Source: Candidatus Moraniibacteriota bacterium (GTDB lineage: Bacteria; Patescibacteriota; Minisyncoccia; Moranbacterales; UBA1568). Taken from it: DNA of 64,000 nt. This document shows, piece after piece, positions 546 through 4,921 of this stretch. The DNA is taken from NCBI GenBank assembly GCA_008012175.1, contig SSEF01000020.1, forward strand, positions 24,002 to 88,001, read 5' to 3'. Below the pieces are notes generated by a model that had not been told where the DNA came from, did no database searches, and was given only the letters and a program-made list of their open reading frames with translations. Both the position numbers and the translations under genes were made by a program. The first letter of the stretch is position 1. Each line of letters begins with the position of its first letter.

Positions 546-1811
546 CTAAACAGTCTCTCGGGAAATTCTTGCTCCGATACCCGACAACCGATCTTCAATC
601 CGCTCATAACCGCGATCAACTTGGTAAATATCCTCGATTATCGTTTCGCCCGTTCCTACAAGTGCTGCAATGATGAGTGCCGCACCAGCCCGCAGATCAT
701 AGCTCTTGATAACTGTTCCGCGGAGCGGTGTCTTGCCATGTATGAGTATCTGATGCGGATTAAGAACGGTCAGTTTTGCCCCCATCTTTTCGAGTTCAGC
801 CGCATAATTAAAACGACCTTCGAACATCGTATCAAAAATGAACGTGTCTCCGGTGGCTTGAGTCGCAAGAACAGCAAGAGGCGCCTGGATATCGGTCGGG
901 ATGCCAGGGTACGGGCGCGGATCAATCTGGAGAGATGGAGCGGAAAGCACTGGCGCGGGATGGATTGTGATCGCGTCCTCTTCAAAGGTGAAGCGTACGC
1001 CAAACTCGCGCAGACGTTCAAGCACGAGATCAAGATCATCTTCTCGGGCATGTTCAACCGTAATTTCGCTCCCTGTTGCCGCACCGAGGATGAGATAGGT
1101 CGCTGCCTCATTATGATCAGGCATGATTACGTGCTTCGCACCATGAAGATCAGAGCGACCACGGATGGTTATGGTATTCGTCCCGAGACCGGAAACAGTA
1201 GCCCCCATTTTCTCAAGGAAATGGCCGAGGTCGACGACGTGCGGTTCGCAGGCTGCAATCTTAACAGTCGTCTCACCCGGGAGGGCAGCCGCAAGCATCA
1301 TAATGTTTTCTGTCGCTGTCACTGACATTTGCCGCAAAACAACCTTGGCTGGCCGGCGGCCGGTTGCATCAATTACGAAACCTTTTTCTTCGGGCTGGAC
1401 TACGATACCAAGCTTTGCCAGCGCGTCGATATGTGCGTCAACCGGACGAGCGCCGATAACGCAGCCGCCCGGCTGACGCAATTCGAAATGATTGAAACGT
1501 GCGGAAAGCGATCCAAAAAGGAGGATCGAAGATCGAAGACGCTTCACTTTTTCTTGGTCTGCACGAGTCGGATCGATAGCATCCGGCGTGATGGCTACCG
1601 TCCGGTGCCCAAGCCACTCCACTGTAGCCCCTAAACTCTCGATGATTTCAAGCATCCGGAACACATCCTCTATCCGGGGGATGTTTTCGAGCACCGAACG
1701 TTCGCGCGAAAGAAGCGTCGCCGCAATGATCGGCGTCGCGGCATTTTTCAGCCCGTAAACGGGAATACGGCCGGACAGCTTCTTTCCGCCCTGGATTCGA
1801 AAGACTTCCAT
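546..1811 (-). CDS. murA: UDP-N-acetylglucosamine 1-carboxyvinyltransferase MurA
   Basis: 421 aa. The N-terminus FRIQGGKKLSGRIPVYGLKNAATPIIAA and the overall EPT-fold pattern are typical of MurA. It lies next to mreB. Confidence 0.9.
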   Translation of the reverse strand: MEVFRIQGGKKLSGRIPVYGLKNAATPIIAATLLSRERSVLENIPRIEDVFRMLEIIESLGATVEWLGHRTVAITPDAIDPTRADQEKVKRLRSSILLFGSLSARFNHFELRQPGGCVIGARPVDAHIDALAKLGIVVQPEEKGFVIDATGRRPAKVVLRQMSVTATENIMMLAAALPGETTVKIAACEPHVVDLGHFLEKMGATVSGLGTNTITIRGRSDLHGAKHVIMPDHNEAATYLILGAATGSEITVEHAREDDLDLVLERLREFGVRFTFEEDAITIHPAPVLSAPSLQIDPRPYPGIPTDIQAPLAVLATQATGDTFIFDTMFEGRFNYAAELEKMGAKLTVLNPHQILIHGKTPLRGTVIKSYDLRAGAALIIAALVGTGETIIEDIYQVDRGYERIEDRLSGIGARISRETV

Positions 1812-2057
1812 AGACCAGAGTATACTCCAAAAAAAACCTTATTTCAAGGCGCAATTCCGCCTCTTTTCCCTCATGAAAATGATAATCCGCTCATCGACGC
1901 GAAGGACGAGAGCGGCATCATTGAGGGTGGCGGCAGGCCTATTTTAGTGCTGCCGCGTGGGACAGGGACACCTGTTCCAGTATGCTTGAAAGCGCTTTAA
2001 CGCTTTTCTTTTTGTTTTTGTATTCTGTTTTTCGCACGAGAACGATGTAAAAAAAGA

Positions 2058-2083
2058 AAACGGGCGTTCACCCGTTTCTTCAT
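2058..2083 (-). terminator. Putative intrinsic terminator after the DGR RT gene
   Basis: Stem AAACGGG (2058-2064) pairs with CCCGTTT (2071-2077) around a 6-nt loop. On the minus strand it is followed by a T-run; on the plus strand 2044-2057 reads gtaaaaaaagaaaa. It sits immediately 3' of the RT stop codon at 2084. Confidence 0.5.
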
Positions 2084-3151
2084 TTACCTTACCAGTATAG
2101 CAGGTTTTACCCCCTCTGTCAAAGTCATTCTCTCTATCTTTTCCCTCAACCGATACCCGTTCCCATGGCTGAGCAATCCGAGATACGCATAAGCGTTCCT
2201 CTCGTCCAACATCCGAAACATCCTCCGCTTCGTTGATCCCCGCAATACGCGATGATCAGGGAAATGCACCCATCCGAGAAAGTCGACGCCCGAAGCAACG
2301 GCTTTGATCAACACCTTATCAGGATGTAAACAAAGTCCGAGTCGTTCCCAAAGAAATTTCCGGATCAATATCAGAAAACCCTCCAGTTGTTCACAGTCTC
2401 TCGACATGATGACAAAATCATCCGCGTAGCGAATGTAATACTTCGCTTTGAGCTTGTGTTTCACGAATTGATCGAATTCGTTCATGTAAATATTCACGAA
2501 AAGCTGCGAGGTCAGATTGCCAAGCGGTAACCCGATACCCGGTCTCTCTAGAGTACGAAAGCTCCGCATCACTCTTTCCAGCAACCAGAGAATATCCTGG
2601 TCAGGGATCCGGTCACGGAGAATACCAAGCAGTATTTCCTGATCGATCGACGCGAAGAACTTCCGGATATCGCACTTCAAGACCCACGCGGTTCTGGTAT
2701 CGTTACAAGAAATTTTCCTCGCAAACACTCGGAATCGATCAAGCGTCTTGTGCGTACCTTTTTCTTTGCGGCAGGAATACGAATCAGCGATGAAGAGCGT
2801 ATCGAAGAACGGATAGAGTATCCGGTAGATCGCGTGGTGGACCAATCGGTCTCTCACCGAAGCCTTGTGGATATCGCGTGGCTTGGGATCGTTTATTTTG
2901 AAGGCTTGATACCCGCCGTGCTCATACGTCTTGTTTTCTAGGTCTTCGTGGAGTGCGAAGATATGGTCCATGAGACGCGCCTCGAATACCTGGACATCTT
3001 GTTTGTTCTTCTTTCCCTTCAGAAATTCCTTCCATGCCTCAAGAAGATTTTCGAGAGATATGATATCATCGTAAACAACCGTTAATTTCTTCTTTGTTTC
3101 GCTATGGCTCTTCCTGGAGTTACCCCCCCCCGACTTGTACCAGTTTTGCAT
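2084..3151 (-). CDS. DGR reverse transcriptase. The full ORF extends to 3469, but the conserved RT domain begins near 3090 and the likely start is Met107 at 3151.
   Basis: RT motifs are present: ...LGNLTSQLFVNIYMNEFD (the DGR-specific [ILV]GxxxSQ variant of the QGxxxSP motif 4) and YADDFVIMS (the motif 5 catalytic YxDD). Upstream, RDRLVHHAIYRILYPFFDTLFIADSYSCRKEKGTHKTL matches the DGR Brt-like N-terminal region. The first 106 codons of the 461-aa ORF are the antisense strand of the avd-like gene and are probably not translated. Confidence 0.9.
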   Translation of the reverse strand: MQNWYKSGGGNSRKSHSETKKKLTVVYDDIISLENLLEAWKEFLKGKKNKQDVQVFEARLMDHIFALHEDLENKTYEHGGYQAFKINDPKPRDIHKASVRDRLVHHAIYRILYPFFDTLFIADSYSCRKEKGTHKTLDRFRVFARKISCNDTRTAWVLKCDIRKFFASIDQEILLGILRDRIPDQDILWLLERVMRSFRTLERPGIGLPLGNLTSQLFVNIYMNEFDQFVKHKLKAKYYIRYADDFVIMSRDCEQLEGFLILIRKFLWERLGLCLHPDKVLIKAVASGVDFLGWVHFPDHRVLRGSTKRRMFRMLDERNAYAYLGLLSHGNGYRLREKIERMTLTEGVKPAILVR

Positions 3152-3487
3152 AAGATAAAAGATGCGTATCTGTTTTGGTATACTCTCCTTTCTTCGCTTC
3201 CCAAGACACACCGCTACTCTCTCGGCCAGCGGATCGATCGTATCTTCATAGAATGCATCGAGTGCGTTTCGGCAGCCGCTTTTCTCTCGCCACAGGAAAA
3301 GATGCCATATGTCCGCCACGCTATCCGCAAAATCGATACGCTCAAGATTCTCCTGCTCGTCCTCTGGGAAACGAAGTCGATCGATACCAAAAAATATATC
3401 GCGCTTTCCGAAAAGATCGATGAGATCGGCAGGATGCTCGGCGGATGGAATGGACAACTCTCCAAACAAAACTCCTCCCGGAAATGA
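3104..3487 (+). CDS. avd: Avd-like accessory variability determinant. It belongs to the four-helix-bundle family, also annotated as the 23S rRNA intervening-sequence protein family.
   Basis: 127 aa. The C-terminal segment ...KKYIALSEKIDEIGRMLGGWNGQLSKQ matches the conserved Avd/four-helix-bundle C-terminal helix; compare bAvd ...AEVGRILGSWIARVNRK and IVS proteins ...ADEIGKMLNGLI. The N-terminal helix YLFWYTLLSSLPKTHRYSLGQRIDRIF matches the family's helix 1-2 region. The gene is on the plus strand, opposite to the RT, TR and target. Confidence 0.7.
   Translation: MALPGVTPPRLVPVLHKIKDAYLFWYTLLSSLPKTHRYSLGQRIDRIFIECIECVSAAAFLSPQEKMPYVRHAIRKIDTLKILLLVLWETKSIDTKKYIALSEKIDEIGRMLGGWNGQLSKQNSSRK
3123..3131. 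repeat. C9/G9 homopolymeric tract inside the antisense overlap between the avd and RT coding regions
   Basis: The sequence read is ta-ccccccccc-g. The tract covers avd codons 7-10 (T-P-P-R) and RT codons 7-10 counted from Met107 (S-G-G-G). Confidence 0.9.
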
Positions 3488-3505
3488 GAGGAGAAATGAA
3501 GAGAG

Positions 3506-3630
3506 TTGCGAAGCGCAGAGCCGGGTTATTGTCGTTCCAGTTGTTGTCGAGCCAGTTCCAGTTCAAGACAATCTGACCACCGTTCTCGATGAGGTACGGG
3601 ACGTTGAGGTTACCATTGCGGTTCTGCACG
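3506..3630 (-). repeat. DGR template repeat (TR)
   Basis: 125 bp are near-identical to 4030-4154. All 10 mismatches have T on the plus strand of this copy, which is A on the minus (sense) strand. The translated sense strand is Asn-rich (NGNLNVPYLIENGGQIVLNWNWLDNNWNDNNPALRFA), with AAC codons typical of a TR. Confidence 0.88.
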
Positions 3631-3929
3631 AATGTATAAGATGCCGTCTATACCACCGCCCATCGAATACTCTCAGGGTTGAATCGTATTCCGCATCTCA
3701 AATGCGCGAGTATCTTATACCAAGTATCTTCATTTTTTGACCCATTCGATAGGCTCAGGGTCATCCTGAGTTTTATCGAAGGATGAAGTGTCTGCATACA
3801 CCACTCTATCCGAAACGGTGGCCACGGATATTCTCAATGTATGGATACTGGATTCGGCCGCCGACGACCGTAATCACCTGCAAGATTCGCCTACTACCAA
3901 TCCCAGTGTATCAAAAAATGAGAAGTTGA

Positions 3930-3971
3930 AGAAATGAAAACCCCGCACTACCATGTAGGTAAAATGCGGGG
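3930..3971 (-). terminator. Putative intrinsic terminator after the DGR target gene
   Basis: Stem CCCCGCA (3941-3947) pairs with TGCGGGG (3965-3971). On the minus strand it is followed by TTTTCATTTCTTC. It lies 25-55 nt 3' of the target stop codon at 3995. Confidence 0.45.
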
Positions 3972-3994
3972 TCAAAGGACTAAGTATCAAGGGT

Positions 3995-4651
3995 CTAAGA
4001 GACCTGAGATACAGAGCCCTGAGGACTACTTGCGAAGCGCAGAGCCGGGTTATTGCCGTGCCAGTTGTTGCCGAGCCAGCCCCAGCTCAAGACAATCTGA
4101 CCACCGTACTCGACGAGGTACGGGACGTTGAGGTCACCATTGCGGTACTGCACGACTGATTTCCAGAGAGAGACTGCCTTGTCTCCGAAATATTTCCGGA
4201 AGATTTCGATGCCTTGCTTCTGGATTTCTTCGCCATCACGAAGCGACAGACAGCGTTCGAGTATCTTCTTTTCCTTGAGATACTCGTAGAGCTTGTGACC
4301 CTCGATACGTTGGCCATTCTTCTGCACGTCATGGAGCCAGAGGTCGACGGCCCCGAGGTCATACTCGACCGGACCGGTGGATTCCAGTTCCGGATGCATC
4401 ACCAGTTTCACCCAATCGGGATAGACGGGACGGATAGAACGATCGACATGAATGAGGGTGTCAAGCGGTGCTTCGGGTGCCAGAGTCGCTCCCTTCACTC
4501 CTTCACGAAGCACTTCAGCGAAACGTGACCGCCAGAGTTCACCATCGGTACTACCAACCTTGTTGACGGTGTCCAACAAGACTCCCAGTCGTTCTTGTGG
4601 GACACCCACGAGGGCACGGACGATGGGGGCGAGCATGTCATTTTTGGACAT
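3995..4651 (-). CDS. DGR variable (target) protein with a C-terminal C-type-lectin-like variable region
   Basis: 218 aa. The C-terminus ...VQYRNGDLNVPYLVEYGGQIVLSWGWLGNNWHGNNPALRFAS is encoded by the VR. It differs from the TR translation only at Asn/AAY-derived positions. The short GGxxxSWxxxxNNxRxAxR-like tail is typical of CLec-fold DGR targets. Confidence 0.85.
   Translation of the reverse strand: MSKNDMLAPIVRALVGVPQERLGVLLDTVNKVGSTDGELWRSRFAEVLREGVKGATLAPEAPLDTLIHVDRSIRPVYPDWVKLVMHPELESTGPVEYDLGAVDLWLHDVQKNGQRIEGHKLYEYLKEKKILERCLSLRDGEEIQKQGIEIFRKYFGDKAVSLWKSVVQYRNGDLNVPYLVEYGGQIVLSWGWLGNNWHGNNPALRFASSPQGSVSQVS
4030..4154 (-). repeat. DGR variable repeat (VR) at the 3' end of the target gene
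   Basis: Aligned 1:1 with the TR at 3506-3630, there are 10 substitutions and all fall at TR adenines. The 3'-proximal 26 nt (4030-4055 and 3506-3531) are identical and GC-rich, which is IMH-like. Confidence 0.88.
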
Positions 4652-4820
4652 GGTCTATCTCCTTTTTTGCAGGCACTAGCGGGCTCTCGAGAAATTGAGT
4701 TTGCCATAGTAGAGAAGGGCCTACATGAAGCCGCTTTCTGCTATGGCAAAACTGTATGATTTTTAAGGTTCGAAGTACTATCATACACCATTTTAGGTGT
4801 TCTGTCCAGGGTCGAGCAGG

Positions 4821-4858
4821 TCATTGAAAAGAGGCTTGCTACAGCCTCTTTTCAATGA
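4821..4858. promoter_or_regulatory. Perfect 15-bp inverted repeat (hairpin) downstream of trxB and upstream of the DGR target gene
   Basis: TCATTGAAAAGAGGC (4821-4835) and GCCTCTTTTCAATGA (4844-4858) flank an 8-nt loop. Confidence 0.4.
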
Positions 4859-4921
4859 CTCCACTCACATAACCCGCGATCGCTAATTAAGTGCTTACCG
4901 GACAAAAAAGAATGGCGGCAG

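Follow-up and report, generated by a model that had tools for sequence, protein, structure and literature searches.

The DGR locus of a Candidatus Moraniibacteriota contig raises the question of what a mononucleotide run of nine C (nine G on the complementary strand) is doing where two of its genes, those for the reverse transcriptase (RT) and for Avd (accessory variability determinant), overlap head to head. An initial annotation of the window (the whole stretch of 64,000 nucleotides analyzed here) had suggested that the run is a phase-variation switch on mutagenesis or, equally, a sequencing or assembly error. In the window, the RT gene (positions 2084 to 3151; 355 aa from the ATG at 3151), the template repeat (TR; 3506 to 3634), and the DGR target gene (3995 to 4651; 218 aa, without a Pfam match), whose 3' end holds the variable repeat (VR; 4030 to 4158), are on the minus strand, and avd (3104 to 3487; 127 aa) is on the opposite, plus strand. 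TR and VR form a 129-nt direct repeat with 91% identity, and because their mismatches are confined to TR adenines on the minus strand, we regard the locus as a genuine DGR. Pfam searches identified the RT as RVT_1 (E = 1e-20) and Avd as bAvd (PF22296; E = 5e-12), and a PDB sequence search with Avd was uninformative. The RT has thousands of homologs in Patescibacteria, and the NCBI MAG proteins matching the window (TXH07326.1, RT, 355 aa; TXH07327.1, Avd, 127 aa) are annotated with the same two start codons. The layout (target gene with VR, TR, inverted avd, RT) is identical to that of architecture B3, or "DGR clade 2" of Roux et al.; B3 is the TR-(avd)-RT form, with avd between TR and RT on the opposite strand, and makes up 90% of the CPR set (Wu et al. 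2018, PMC5758913). Other DGRs have been reconstituted in E. coli (PMC12875486). A terminator-like hairpin with a U run (3462 to 3493, minus strand, in the sense of TR and RT) lies 13 nt past TR, antisense to the avd stop codon, and is also present in the related locus L062. An Rfam search of positions 2000 to 4800 gave no matches, and an invertible avd segment is unsupported, since no inverted repeats were found on either side of the gene.

The run occupies positions 3123 to 3131 (CCCCCCCCC on the plus strand) and is both the longest homopolymer of the 64 kb and the sole C or G run of at least 8 nt in the window. A first-order Markov model predicts 0.21 C runs and 0.07 G runs of at least 9 nt per window, so its presence by itself is only mildly unusual, and its position is what counts. 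The avd frame from the ATG at 3104 begins ATG GCT CTT CCT GGA GTT ACC CCC CCC CGA, and the RT frame from the ATG at 3151 begins ATG CAA AAC TGG TAC AAG TCG GGG GGG GGT on the minus strand; read directly in both frames, the run thus falls in codons 7 to 10 of each gene, as first annotated, and contributes two prolines to Avd and three glycines to the RT. A simple-sequence repeat (SSR) contingency locus is recognized by a simple repeat that is long enough for slippage, such as a homopolymer of about 7 to 8 nt or more, and that lies either in a promoter or early in an open reading frame, which is how this C9 is placed in both avd and RT. Full-length Avd (127 to 128 aa) is obtained from the ATG at 3104 only with C9 or C12, and the remaining lengths give 15 to 18 aa. 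With G9, the avd and RT ATGs are both in frame; with G8, G10, and G11, both are out. The earlier statement that a change of one nucleotide would frameshift both genes therefore holds for Avd, which is cut to 15 to 18 aa, and for the RT as read from the ATG at 3151. An example sequence for a locked tract is CCACCTCCA.

We compared the tract, as assembled sequence, among 26 independent assemblies of the organism from 26 samples. Four lengths were recovered between identical flanks, namely, G8 in 6, G9 in 11, G10 in 7, and G11 in 2 assemblies, which include the lengths of 8, 9, and 10 nt that the initial annotation proposed to look for and extend to 11. This repeat-number polymorphism, of the kind seen at SSR contingency loci, is set against only five other variable sites outside VR in 3.1 kb, and an A8 run at 1829 never varies across the same assemblies. 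Runs from the same project were concordant (SRR347530xx all G9; SRR124870xx both G8), and three control species showed a single length each in 6/6, 4/4, and 8/8 assemblies (18/18; one genome closed), their tracts being G9 and G10. This constancy also counts against a slippery switch, although many of the control samples probably come from a single site per species. With four lengths recurring over 26 samples and the controls constant, the run is not an assembly error, and that part of the initial annotation can be set aside. TR is invariant in all of the assemblies that cover it (24/26), and VR varies between assemblies at TR-adenine positions and is a frequent contig break point. One VR allele was found with G9, G10, and G11, and the G8 assemblies carry four different VRs, which indicates that lineages now "OFF" (out of frame) diversified at some point.

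To place the tract in a family context, we assembled 154 Patescibacteria DGR loci of the TR-(avd)-RT form, comprising 80 GTDB species representatives (set 1) and 74 evaluable metagenome loci (set 2). The latter came from a metagenome scan with the window RT, which gave only relatives of 57 to 67% identity and hence served as a replication set. The avd gene is on the opposite strand in all of the set 1 avd matches and divergent upstream of the RT in 74/74 set 2 loci. A simple repeat is found at the avd-RT junction in about 95% of the 154 loci: a G6 to G14 run in 62 of set 1 and 60 of set 2, with (GA)n, (CT)n, (GT)n, or (GGCT)n in place of the G run at about 10 loci per set and no repeat at all at 4 loci in each set. 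The run length has its mode at 9 to 10 nt and ranges from 6 to 14 nt, and the long repeats of 24 to 36 nt at the junction include (GA)16-17, (TC)17, and (GGCT)6-10. Nearly all C or G runs of at least 8 nt in these sequences are at the junction (118/119 in 888 kb; 59/59 in 589 kb and 59/60 in 299 kb). Thus, related loci do carry the tract, and what is conserved is the presence of a repeat and not its sequence. The G run is unlikely to act as a Shine-Dalgarno sequence, as the spacing is at least 13 nt and (CT)n or (GGCT)n replaces the run at some loci. A hairpin of variable sequence adjoins the G run, directly 5' of it on the RT-sense strand.

Whether the tract gates avd depends on where avd starts, and the codon usage of the antisense RT segment is informative in this respect. 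The RT His8 codon is CAT at 103 loci and CAC at 4, and the ratio over six other conserved His residues is 424:423 (p = 7e-24). Four codons after His8, the RT uses xAT irrespective of the amino acid (GAT 69 : GAC 4 compared with 603:497; p = 4e-13), and the following Ile codon is ATC at 68% of loci compared with 30% elsewhere (p = 3e-19). Combined, the three biases read TGnTAnnnT-N7-ATG on the avd strand, an ATG whose first base is A in 96% of loci; TAnnnT-N7-ATG stands before avd in 78/146 loci, and in 59 of these the motif carries the TGn extension. A general AT-rich bias of the RT 5' end does not account for this, because neighboring codons are without bias (TTT/TTC 33:32; TAC at least as frequent as TAT; the one Ile codon being 68% ATC). 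A conserved avd-strand ATG with a promoter upstream of the run would put the run inside avd, and the conservation of Avd (xLLPVL), maintained through synonymous changes, extends right up to the tract. In the window itself, a -10-like hexamer, TAATTT (3083 to 3088, plus strand), lies 15 nt upstream of the avd ATG at 3104 and is a candidate avd promoter element; read directly, TAATTT-N15-ATG is common to the window and the loci L206 and L209, with N18 in L207. This geometry differs from the putatively leaderless N7 pattern of the family, and a consensus scan found no full sigma-70 site at the window's avd start. An avd start at TTG 3146 or at the conserved Leu after the run is rejected, as this Leu is TTA and not TTG in many loci, and is also disfavored by the conserved ATG and -10 upstream; a minor downstream start may nevertheless exist beside the upstream ATG. 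In about 70% of loci, the run is followed within about 45 nt by a TTG or GTG (TTG 3146 in the window), from which a slightly shorter Avd could start independently of tract length.

The RT start distinguishes the window's subclade from the rest. In most relatives, the RT start is 13 to 22 nt past the run, and the tract would gate avd alone. In the window's subclade, the RT has lost this usual downstream ATG and starts at the ATG at 3151 (common to the window, L206, and L209), whereby the same tract would also phase the RT; in this lineage, the stretch of RT frame from the tract to the conserved N terminus holds no ATG, GTG, or TTG, which argues for a start upstream of the tract, with rarer start codons being possible. 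The avd ATG lies 16 to 19 nt upstream of the C run in 8/8 subclade loci (7 species), and the avd and RT ATGs are both in frame in the window and L206 and both out in L209. The proposal that the tract gates both enzymes thus describes the window lineage but not most relatives, in which avd alone would be affected. Even in the window, the gating of the RT may be incomplete. Overlapping GTG/GTG/TTG codons at 3202 to 3211 on the minus strand (GTGTGTCTTGG), antisense to the conserved Avd PKTH codons, offer an alternative RT-frame start about 45 codons upstream for each tract phase, and gene callers chose these starts for the G8/G11 (P0001, P0125) and G10 (P0127) alleles. Since the other two RT frames have such a GTG or TTG about 45 codons upstream, the RT "OFF" state may be leaky.

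Across the family, 82 G-run loci have the avd ATG, and the body is in frame with it in 22 of these, shifted by +1 in 30, and shifted by +2 in 30; the in-frame share of about 27% is no higher than chance. Nor does the tract phase bring upstream starts into frame more often than expected (avd, 38 observed compared with 44 expected; RT, 7 compared with 7.7). This uniform distribution fits a mutational equilibrium, and it equally fits translation that never crosses the tract. The product from the avd ATG in out-of-frame loci is about 30 aa, and the Avd body is nonetheless intact, with at least 106 codons, in 58/58 out-of-frame loci tested. Together with the difference between 127 and 15 to 18 aa in the window, these undecayed OFF bodies reproduce the frame behavior of an SSR contingency locus. 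Of the four repeat-less loci that have the avd ATG, one carries an insertion and the other three (L052, L070, L158) are in frame. Comparisons of tract phase with VR diversity are anecdotal: assemblies of the ON species P0027 differ in VR and have contigs that end there, and in the OFF species P0106 and P0116, VR is identical in 4/4 and 3/3 assemblies. In the window's species, contigs break at VR in 4/11 ON and 3/15 OFF assemblies, numbers that are too small to weigh.

We therefore present the following model. The repeat would be a hypermutable contingency locus in the head-to-head avd-RT junction of the TR-(avd)-RT DGRs of Patescibacteria. The avd gene would be transcribed from an extended -10 (TGnTAnnnT) encoded antisense in RT codons 11 to 14 across the family, its mRNA starting at the ATG antisense to the RT His8 codon, and its frame would cross the repeat as poly-proline before entering the conserved Avd body. 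Replication slippage by one repeat unit would then shift this body in or out of frame with the ATG. RT activity requires Avd. Slippage would thus toggle the adenine mutagenesis of the target gene heritably and reversibly, changing protein output and, in turn, retrohoming. The length polymorphism, the conservation of the repeat, and the avd ATG upstream of the tract support the initial reading of a phase-variation switch, and on this evidence from comparative sequence analysis we consider it fairly likely that the tract acts as a reversible frameshift switch on Avd and, in the window lineage, on the RT too.

Among the alternatives, one that is compatible with the frameshift model is that the tract tunes transcription as the spacer of an RT promoter, its length altering the -35/-10 spacing. 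In many relatives, a -10-like TAnnnT abuts the G run 7 nt before the RT ATG, standing directly after the run in 29/32 loci whose RT ATG lies 13 to 14 nt past it; a consensus scan predicted CTGGCA-18-TAGAAT across the run in L062, and the terminator-like hairpin after TR implies that the RT needs a promoter of its own. Further, the distance from the N-terminal Avd codons to the -10 is 25 to 27 nt in 18/22 loci despite run lengths of 6 to 13 nt, with the compensation between run and flank length being only marginal (rho = -0.42, p = 0.05). The same constancy is, however, equally that of the modal in-frame Avd length plus or minus a one-base slippage (a sum of 26 being in frame). The putative -35 (TGGCAA/TGGTAA) is weak, repeats of 24 to 36 nt cannot fit a 17-nt spacer, and the window has TAACTC after the run, with no ATG at +13 and no predicted promoter. 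We regard a spacer role as unlikely.

A second alternative is that the repeat has a role independent of its length (e.g., as a non-B DNA structure or torsional element that separates the divergent promoters, as a site rich in purines for ribosome or protein binding, or as an RNA element), with the polymorphism a neutral by-product and Avd starting downstream of the run. In its favor, non-B DNA is known for poly(G), (GA)n, and (GT)n alike, the RT-sense strand has the variable-sequence hairpin next to the run, the frames are uniformly distributed across species, and the post-run TTG or GTG codons of about 70% of loci would supply the start. Yet poly(G) has no evident structural feature in common with (GGCT)n or (CT)n, and such a role leaves unexplained why the first base of the avd ATG is A in 96% of loci, why an extended -10 precedes it by 7 nt, why the avd body is in frame with it in the three clean repeat-less loci, and why Avd conservation runs up to the tract; we find it decidedly unlikely. 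Slippage of RNA polymerase or the ribosome, which would yield some in-frame Avd (and RT) at any DNA length, at a low level and without a heritable ON/OFF state, appears highly doubtful. It would account for uniform frames together with avd bodies that are intact everywhere, long homopolymers are well known to cause transcriptional slippage in bacteria, and on the RT-sense strand the G run has the hairpin immediately 5' of it. That is the wrong side of the run for avd transcripts, however; di- and tetranucleotide repeats at the same site are poor substrates, and such slippage is best documented on A/T runs, G/C tracts being DNA-level switches in Neisseria and Campylobacter. Finally, although homopolymers are prone to errors and some contigs have low coverage (L002, cov 3), an artifact at poly-G as the source of the polymorphism is exceedingly improbable, given the project-consistent recurrence of four lengths over 26 samples, the 18/18 reproducible G9/G10 tracts in the other species (closed genome included), the constant A8 run in the same region, and lengths of 6 to 14 nt over about 120 species.

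The frameshift switch has close parallels in the contingency loci of Neisseria, Haemophilus, and Campylobacter (poly-G/C in pilC, lgtA, and the C. jejuni capsule and LOS genes), with which it shares a homopolymer of at least 8 bases in the first codons, length polymorphism between near-clonal populations, an intact frame downstream in out-of-frame alleles, and substitution by other repeat types at the same site in relatives. It differs in that the window's tract would gate a hypermutation accessory protein and a polymerase rather than a surface or restriction-modification component, in that one tract lies within two antisense-overlapping frames, and in its Patescibacteria hosts. With the (TA)n of H. 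influenzae hifA/hifB and the poly-G/C spacers of Neisseria porA and opc, it shares a repeat between or overlapping divergent 5' ends and, in many relatives, one adjoining a -10-like hexamer. In contrast to these systems, most of the evidence here points to avd being affected through its reading frame in translation, none of the -35 candidates was convincing, and the (GA)n and (GGCT)n variants are too long to serve as promoter spacers. Switchable mutators, i.e., tandem-repeat or prophage-controlled mutL and mutS alleles, place a heritable and reversible switch on the genome-wide rate of mutagenesis; the DGR switch would instead act on mutagenesis confined to one variable region of about 130 bp. 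Leaderless mRNAs with a TANNNT -10 located 7 nt upstream of the AUG are well described in Mycobacterium and other Actinobacteria; such units have the -10 hexamer 6 to 8 nt ahead of a start codon that doubles as the transcription start, and here the TAnnnT-N7-ATG geometry occurs on both strands (RT, 29/32 type-I loci; avd, 78/146). Unlike known leaderless units, avd and RT are divergent and overlap by about 24 nt, each putative -10 being within the codons of the other gene. Neither a repeat tract, nor a promoter, nor phase variation of the enzymes is mentioned in Wu et al. 2018 (PMC5758913; full-text term search) or the other DGR papers searched, and no published description of the tract was found in the searched literature; Paul et al. 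2017 (PMC5436926), the primary paper on DGRs of the CPR, and one 2026 preprint, both outside that literature, may mention it.

No natural system diversifies proteins more extremely than DGRs, and they are particularly frequent in the Patescibacteria, ultra-small organisms that depend on hosts and in which restraint of their mutagenesis matters because continued mutagenesis would destroy a useful variant once it had arisen. The sequence comparisons somewhat favor the view that, in a Patescibacteria-specific DGR clade, hypermutation is itself a bet-hedged, heritable ON/OFF trait: the repeat in the avd frame (and in some lineages that of the RT) would keep most populations OFF, with rare in-frame revertants diversifying the target, and the divergent, 5'-overlapping leaderless genes would carry each other's promoters. 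Such dual-coded promoters, each -10 lying in synonymous sites of the other gene, would be a compact example of overlapping information. If the switch is real, tract phase should predict VR diversity within samples, the tract and VR being about 1 kb apart, and the switch would also explain why gene callers misannotate avd and RT at these loci and why many DGRs look "inactive" in metagenomes. A built-in stochastic switch of this kind would answer, for the whole clade, how DGR mutagenesis is restrained.

The neighborhood of the tract in the window is a complete diversity-generating retroelement (DGR). It comprises a reverse transcriptase (RT) gene on the minus strand (2084 to 3151; RVT_1, E = 1e-20), an accessory variability determinant gene (avd) on the plus strand (3104 to 3487; bAvd PF22296, E = 5e-12), a 129-nt template repeat (TR; 3506 to 3634), and a variable repeat (VR; 4030 to 4158) at the end of a minus-strand target gene (3995 to 4651), whose 218-aa product has no Pfam match and contains the VR as its C-terminal ~40 codons. 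All differences between TR and VR fall at TR adenines. The order target/VR, TR, inverted avd, and RT is architecture B3, seen by Wu et al. (PMC5758913) in 90% of the CPR DGRs of their set. An NCBI Candidatus Moraniibacteriota MAG matches the window, and its proteins TXH07326.1 and TXH07327.1 are annotated with the two start codons used in the initial annotation. Counted from these ATGs, the tract, nine C on the plus strand and nine G on the minus strand at 3123 to 3131, indeed occupies codons 7 to 10 of both avd and RT. It is the longest homopolymer of the 64 kb and the sole C or G run of at least 8 nt there; a first-order Markov model predicts ~0.28 runs of at least 9 nt per window, so that its location is notable rather than its existence. 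Separately, the avd stop codon is overlapped in antisense by a terminator-like hairpin with a U run (3462 to 3493, minus strand), which follows the TR after 13 nt in the TR/RT sense and is kept in a distant relative (locus L062, 1482 to 1515). Its presence suggests either a transcription unit for the TR RNA alone or a DGR RNA that includes the hairpin, along with the need for a separate RT promoter.

A profile search with one genome per GTDB species, from which the best 80 matching loci were kept (RT 57 to 71% identical), recovered avd head to head with RT in essentially all of them. A G run of 6 to 14 nt is found at the junction in 62 of these 80 loci and (GA)n, (CT)n, or (GGCT)n in ~10, with only 4 having no junction repeat; all 59 C/G runs of at least 8 nt in 589 kb of these loci are at the junction. 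The picture was replicated in 74 evaluable metagenome loci that form an independent set, all with avd divergent from RT: 60 have G runs, 10 have (GA)n, (GT)n, (TC)n, or (CTGG)n instead, and 4 have no repeat, while 59 of the 60 long C/G runs in 299 kb are at the junction. Thus, the proposed comparison with related genomes recovered a repeat at this position in most loci of both sets. Among 116 nonredundant loci, G-run lengths are unimodal, peaking at 9 to 10 without three-base periodicity. What is conserved is the place and the repetitiveness, not the sequence, which argues against a sequence-specific role (a Shine-Dalgarno site, for instance, or a particular RNA motif) and for mutability as the selected property. 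Two further features of the junction were observed. In many loci (for example, L044, L040, L172, L043, L019, and L072), the 34 nt ahead of the G run on the RT-sense strand contain a hairpin whose sequence varies; it overlaps the Avd LLPxLxK codons, ends 0 to 3 nt before the run, and is weak in the window (3132 to 3152). On the RT-sense strand, its folding energy is below that of shuffled sequences (P = 0.001), whereas the avd-sense strand shows no such difference (P = 0.45); a role in favoring slippage or in the RNA is conceivable. In the L106/L107 DGR (P0037 clade), the G run between avd and RT is absent and a 44-nt perfect palindrome, cacttagggactaagtcccc aatt ggggacttagtccctaagtg, lies ~20 to 65 nt upstream of the RT ATG instead.

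An RT start beyond the tract, envisaged by the initial annotation, holds for most relatives, where the ATG is 13 to 22 nt downstream of the run, but apparently not for the window, which is among the ~20% of loci with no canonical start between the run and the conserved RT N terminus, and where the RT frame must therefore cross the repeat. With a gap of 13 to 14 nt, TAnnnT directly follows the run and precedes the RT ATG by 7 nt in 29 of 32 loci, and such spacing is the geometry of leaderless mRNAs. For avd, whose start was otherwise ambiguous, codon usage at the beginning of RT points to a start. The conserved His8 is encoded by CAT in 103 loci and by CAC in only 4, whereas six other conserved His positions of these RTs are split 424:423 (Fisher P = 7e-24). 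Four codons further on, the form is xAT for any amino acid (GAT:GAC 69:4 against 603:497 elsewhere; P = 4e-13), and 68% of loci use ATC for the next Ile, compared with 30% elsewhere (P = 3e-19). No AT bias is seen in the codons neighboring these three sites, so the effect is not general to the 5' end. On the avd strand, the biased codons spell TGnTAnnnT, seven bases, and ATG, a putative extended -10 element with an AUG where transcription would be expected to start; of 146 loci, 103 have the ATG, 78 have TAnnnT-N7-ATG, and 59 have the full pattern. Since Avd conservation (xLLPVL, with synonymous changes) also reaches right to the run, the avd ORF probably starts upstream of the repeat and crosses it as poly-proline. 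RT codons 8 to 14 of the 146 loci (window equivalent, ~3060 to 3080) are thus dual coding, with the candidate avd promoter and ATG in RT synonymous sites, and the RT TAnnnT in turn sits within the avd ORF; the putative leaderless avd and RT transcripts would share ~24 nt at their 5' ends.

In the 82 G-run loci that have it, the avd ATG is in phase with the Avd body in 22 and shifted by +1 in 30 and by +2 in 30, a distribution indistinguishable from uniform. Translation from the out-of-frame ATGs would end after ~30 codons, but the Avd body stays open for at least 106 codons in all 58 such loci tested, so these are not decaying pseudogenes. Four loci have the ATG but have lost the repeat: the three free of insertions (L052, L070, and L158) are all in frame, and the fourth, L193, has an insertion with stop codons. 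This ~100-nt insertion separates the run (G8, interrupted context) from the RT start, disrupting the usual geometry. Loci with non-G repeats are in frame in 2 of 12 cases, and two related loci one CTGG unit apart (among other changes) include one in frame and one out. Taken together, a conserved start, an intact body, and a phase that is random with the repeat and fixed without it are the classic signature of a contingency gene.

The eight loci of the window's subclade (the window, L206, L207/L208, L209, L016, L129, and L026) all have an avd-strand ATG 16 to 19 nt ahead of the C run. This ATG is in frame in the window (C9), in L016, and in L206, which has C8 and a flank longer by one base; elsewhere in the subclade it is out of frame. 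The RT start ATGCA(A/G) is common to the window, L206, and L209; the avd and RT ATGs are both in frame in the first two and both out in L209, which favors the earlier proposal that one tract may gate both genes. Likewise, when tract lengths of 7 to 12 were modeled, only 9 and 12 gave full-length Avd (127 to 128 aa) and an ATG-initiated RT, the others leaving Avd at 15 to 18 aa, so that a one-nucleotide change would frameshift both genes as claimed. The other two RT phases have only a GTG or TTG ~45 codons upstream, within the antisense of the conserved Avd PKTH codons.

Several other explanations bear on these observations. The in-frame fraction is no higher than chance, and it is possible that avd starts downstream of the run, the repeat having a length-insensitive structural role; this leaves the conserved ATG and -10 element and the in-frame repeat-less loci unexplained. 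Slippage at the RNA level could make every phase leaky. The tract could also act on RT as a promoter spacer, which is compatible with the geometry in some relatives but fits neither repeats of 24 to 36 nt nor the window itself. That the length differences are an assembly or sequencing artifact is largely excluded by the following comparison.

The best protein match to the window's RT (P0001; 374 aa) is 100% identical, its differing N terminus reflecting the same DNA with G8, and the 90%-identity cluster holds more N-terminal variants. Assembly-level tract lengths, read from the contigs encoding them, are G8 in 6, G9 in 11 (including the window), G10 in 7, and G11 in 2 of 26 assemblies from different sequencing runs; by this reading of the frame, 11 of the 26 would be ON. 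The tract flanks are identical in all 26, the A8 run at 1829 is invariant, and, outside the VR and tract, only five sites vary in the 3.1 kb from target gene to RT, four of them private to one contig. Lengths agree within projects, and three other species with G9 or G10 tracts, used as controls for assembly noise, each have one length (6/6, 4/4, and 8/8 assemblies, a closed genome included); the polymorphism is hence very probably real. G9 (twice), G10, and G11 are all found with one VR allele, and G10 and G11 with a second in neighboring runs from a single project, so the tract changes no more slowly than the hypervariable VR does. The organism itself comes from >20 unrelated projects with near-zero nucleotide divergence (window 1800 to 4900 against 25 assemblies, L001 to L006 and L087 to L105), indicating a very widespread, near-clonal Moraniibacteriota lineage; many of its contigs stop at the VR, consistent with within-sample VR heterogeneity. 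Gene callers are misled at 3152 to 3469 (minus strand) and 3309 to 3740 (plus strand): given G9, they extend RT into the antisense of avd, to 461 aa (P0123), and given G8, G10, or G11 they miss avd and predict instead a spurious 143-aa ORF that overlaps the avd 3' end, making public annotations of these DGRs inconsistent.

The three control species, whose samples are of uncertain independence, give a suggestive link between tract phase and VR activity: VRs differ between assemblies, with contigs stopping at the VR, in the in-frame P0027 (G10) and are identical in 4/4 and 3/3 assemblies of the out-of-frame P0106 (G9) and P0116 (G10). The tract has the sequence-level features of the poly-G/C contingency-locus class and would work like those of Neisseria, Haemophilus, and Campylobacter. 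The DGR and the B3 architecture are already known, and the DGR literature searched by full text describes no such repeat or gating. What appears new is the combination of two features: a clade-conserved repeat predicted to gate targeted-hypermutation enzymes, and a divergent, overlapping gene pair in which each gene would carry the other's -10 element in synonymous sites. Avd is needed for RT activity in the Bordetella phage DGR. The explanation with the best support, which we consider fairly probable, is that slipped-strand changes in tract length act as a frameshift switch on Avd across the family, and on RT as well in the window's lineage, which would make DGR mutagenesis itself phase-variable.
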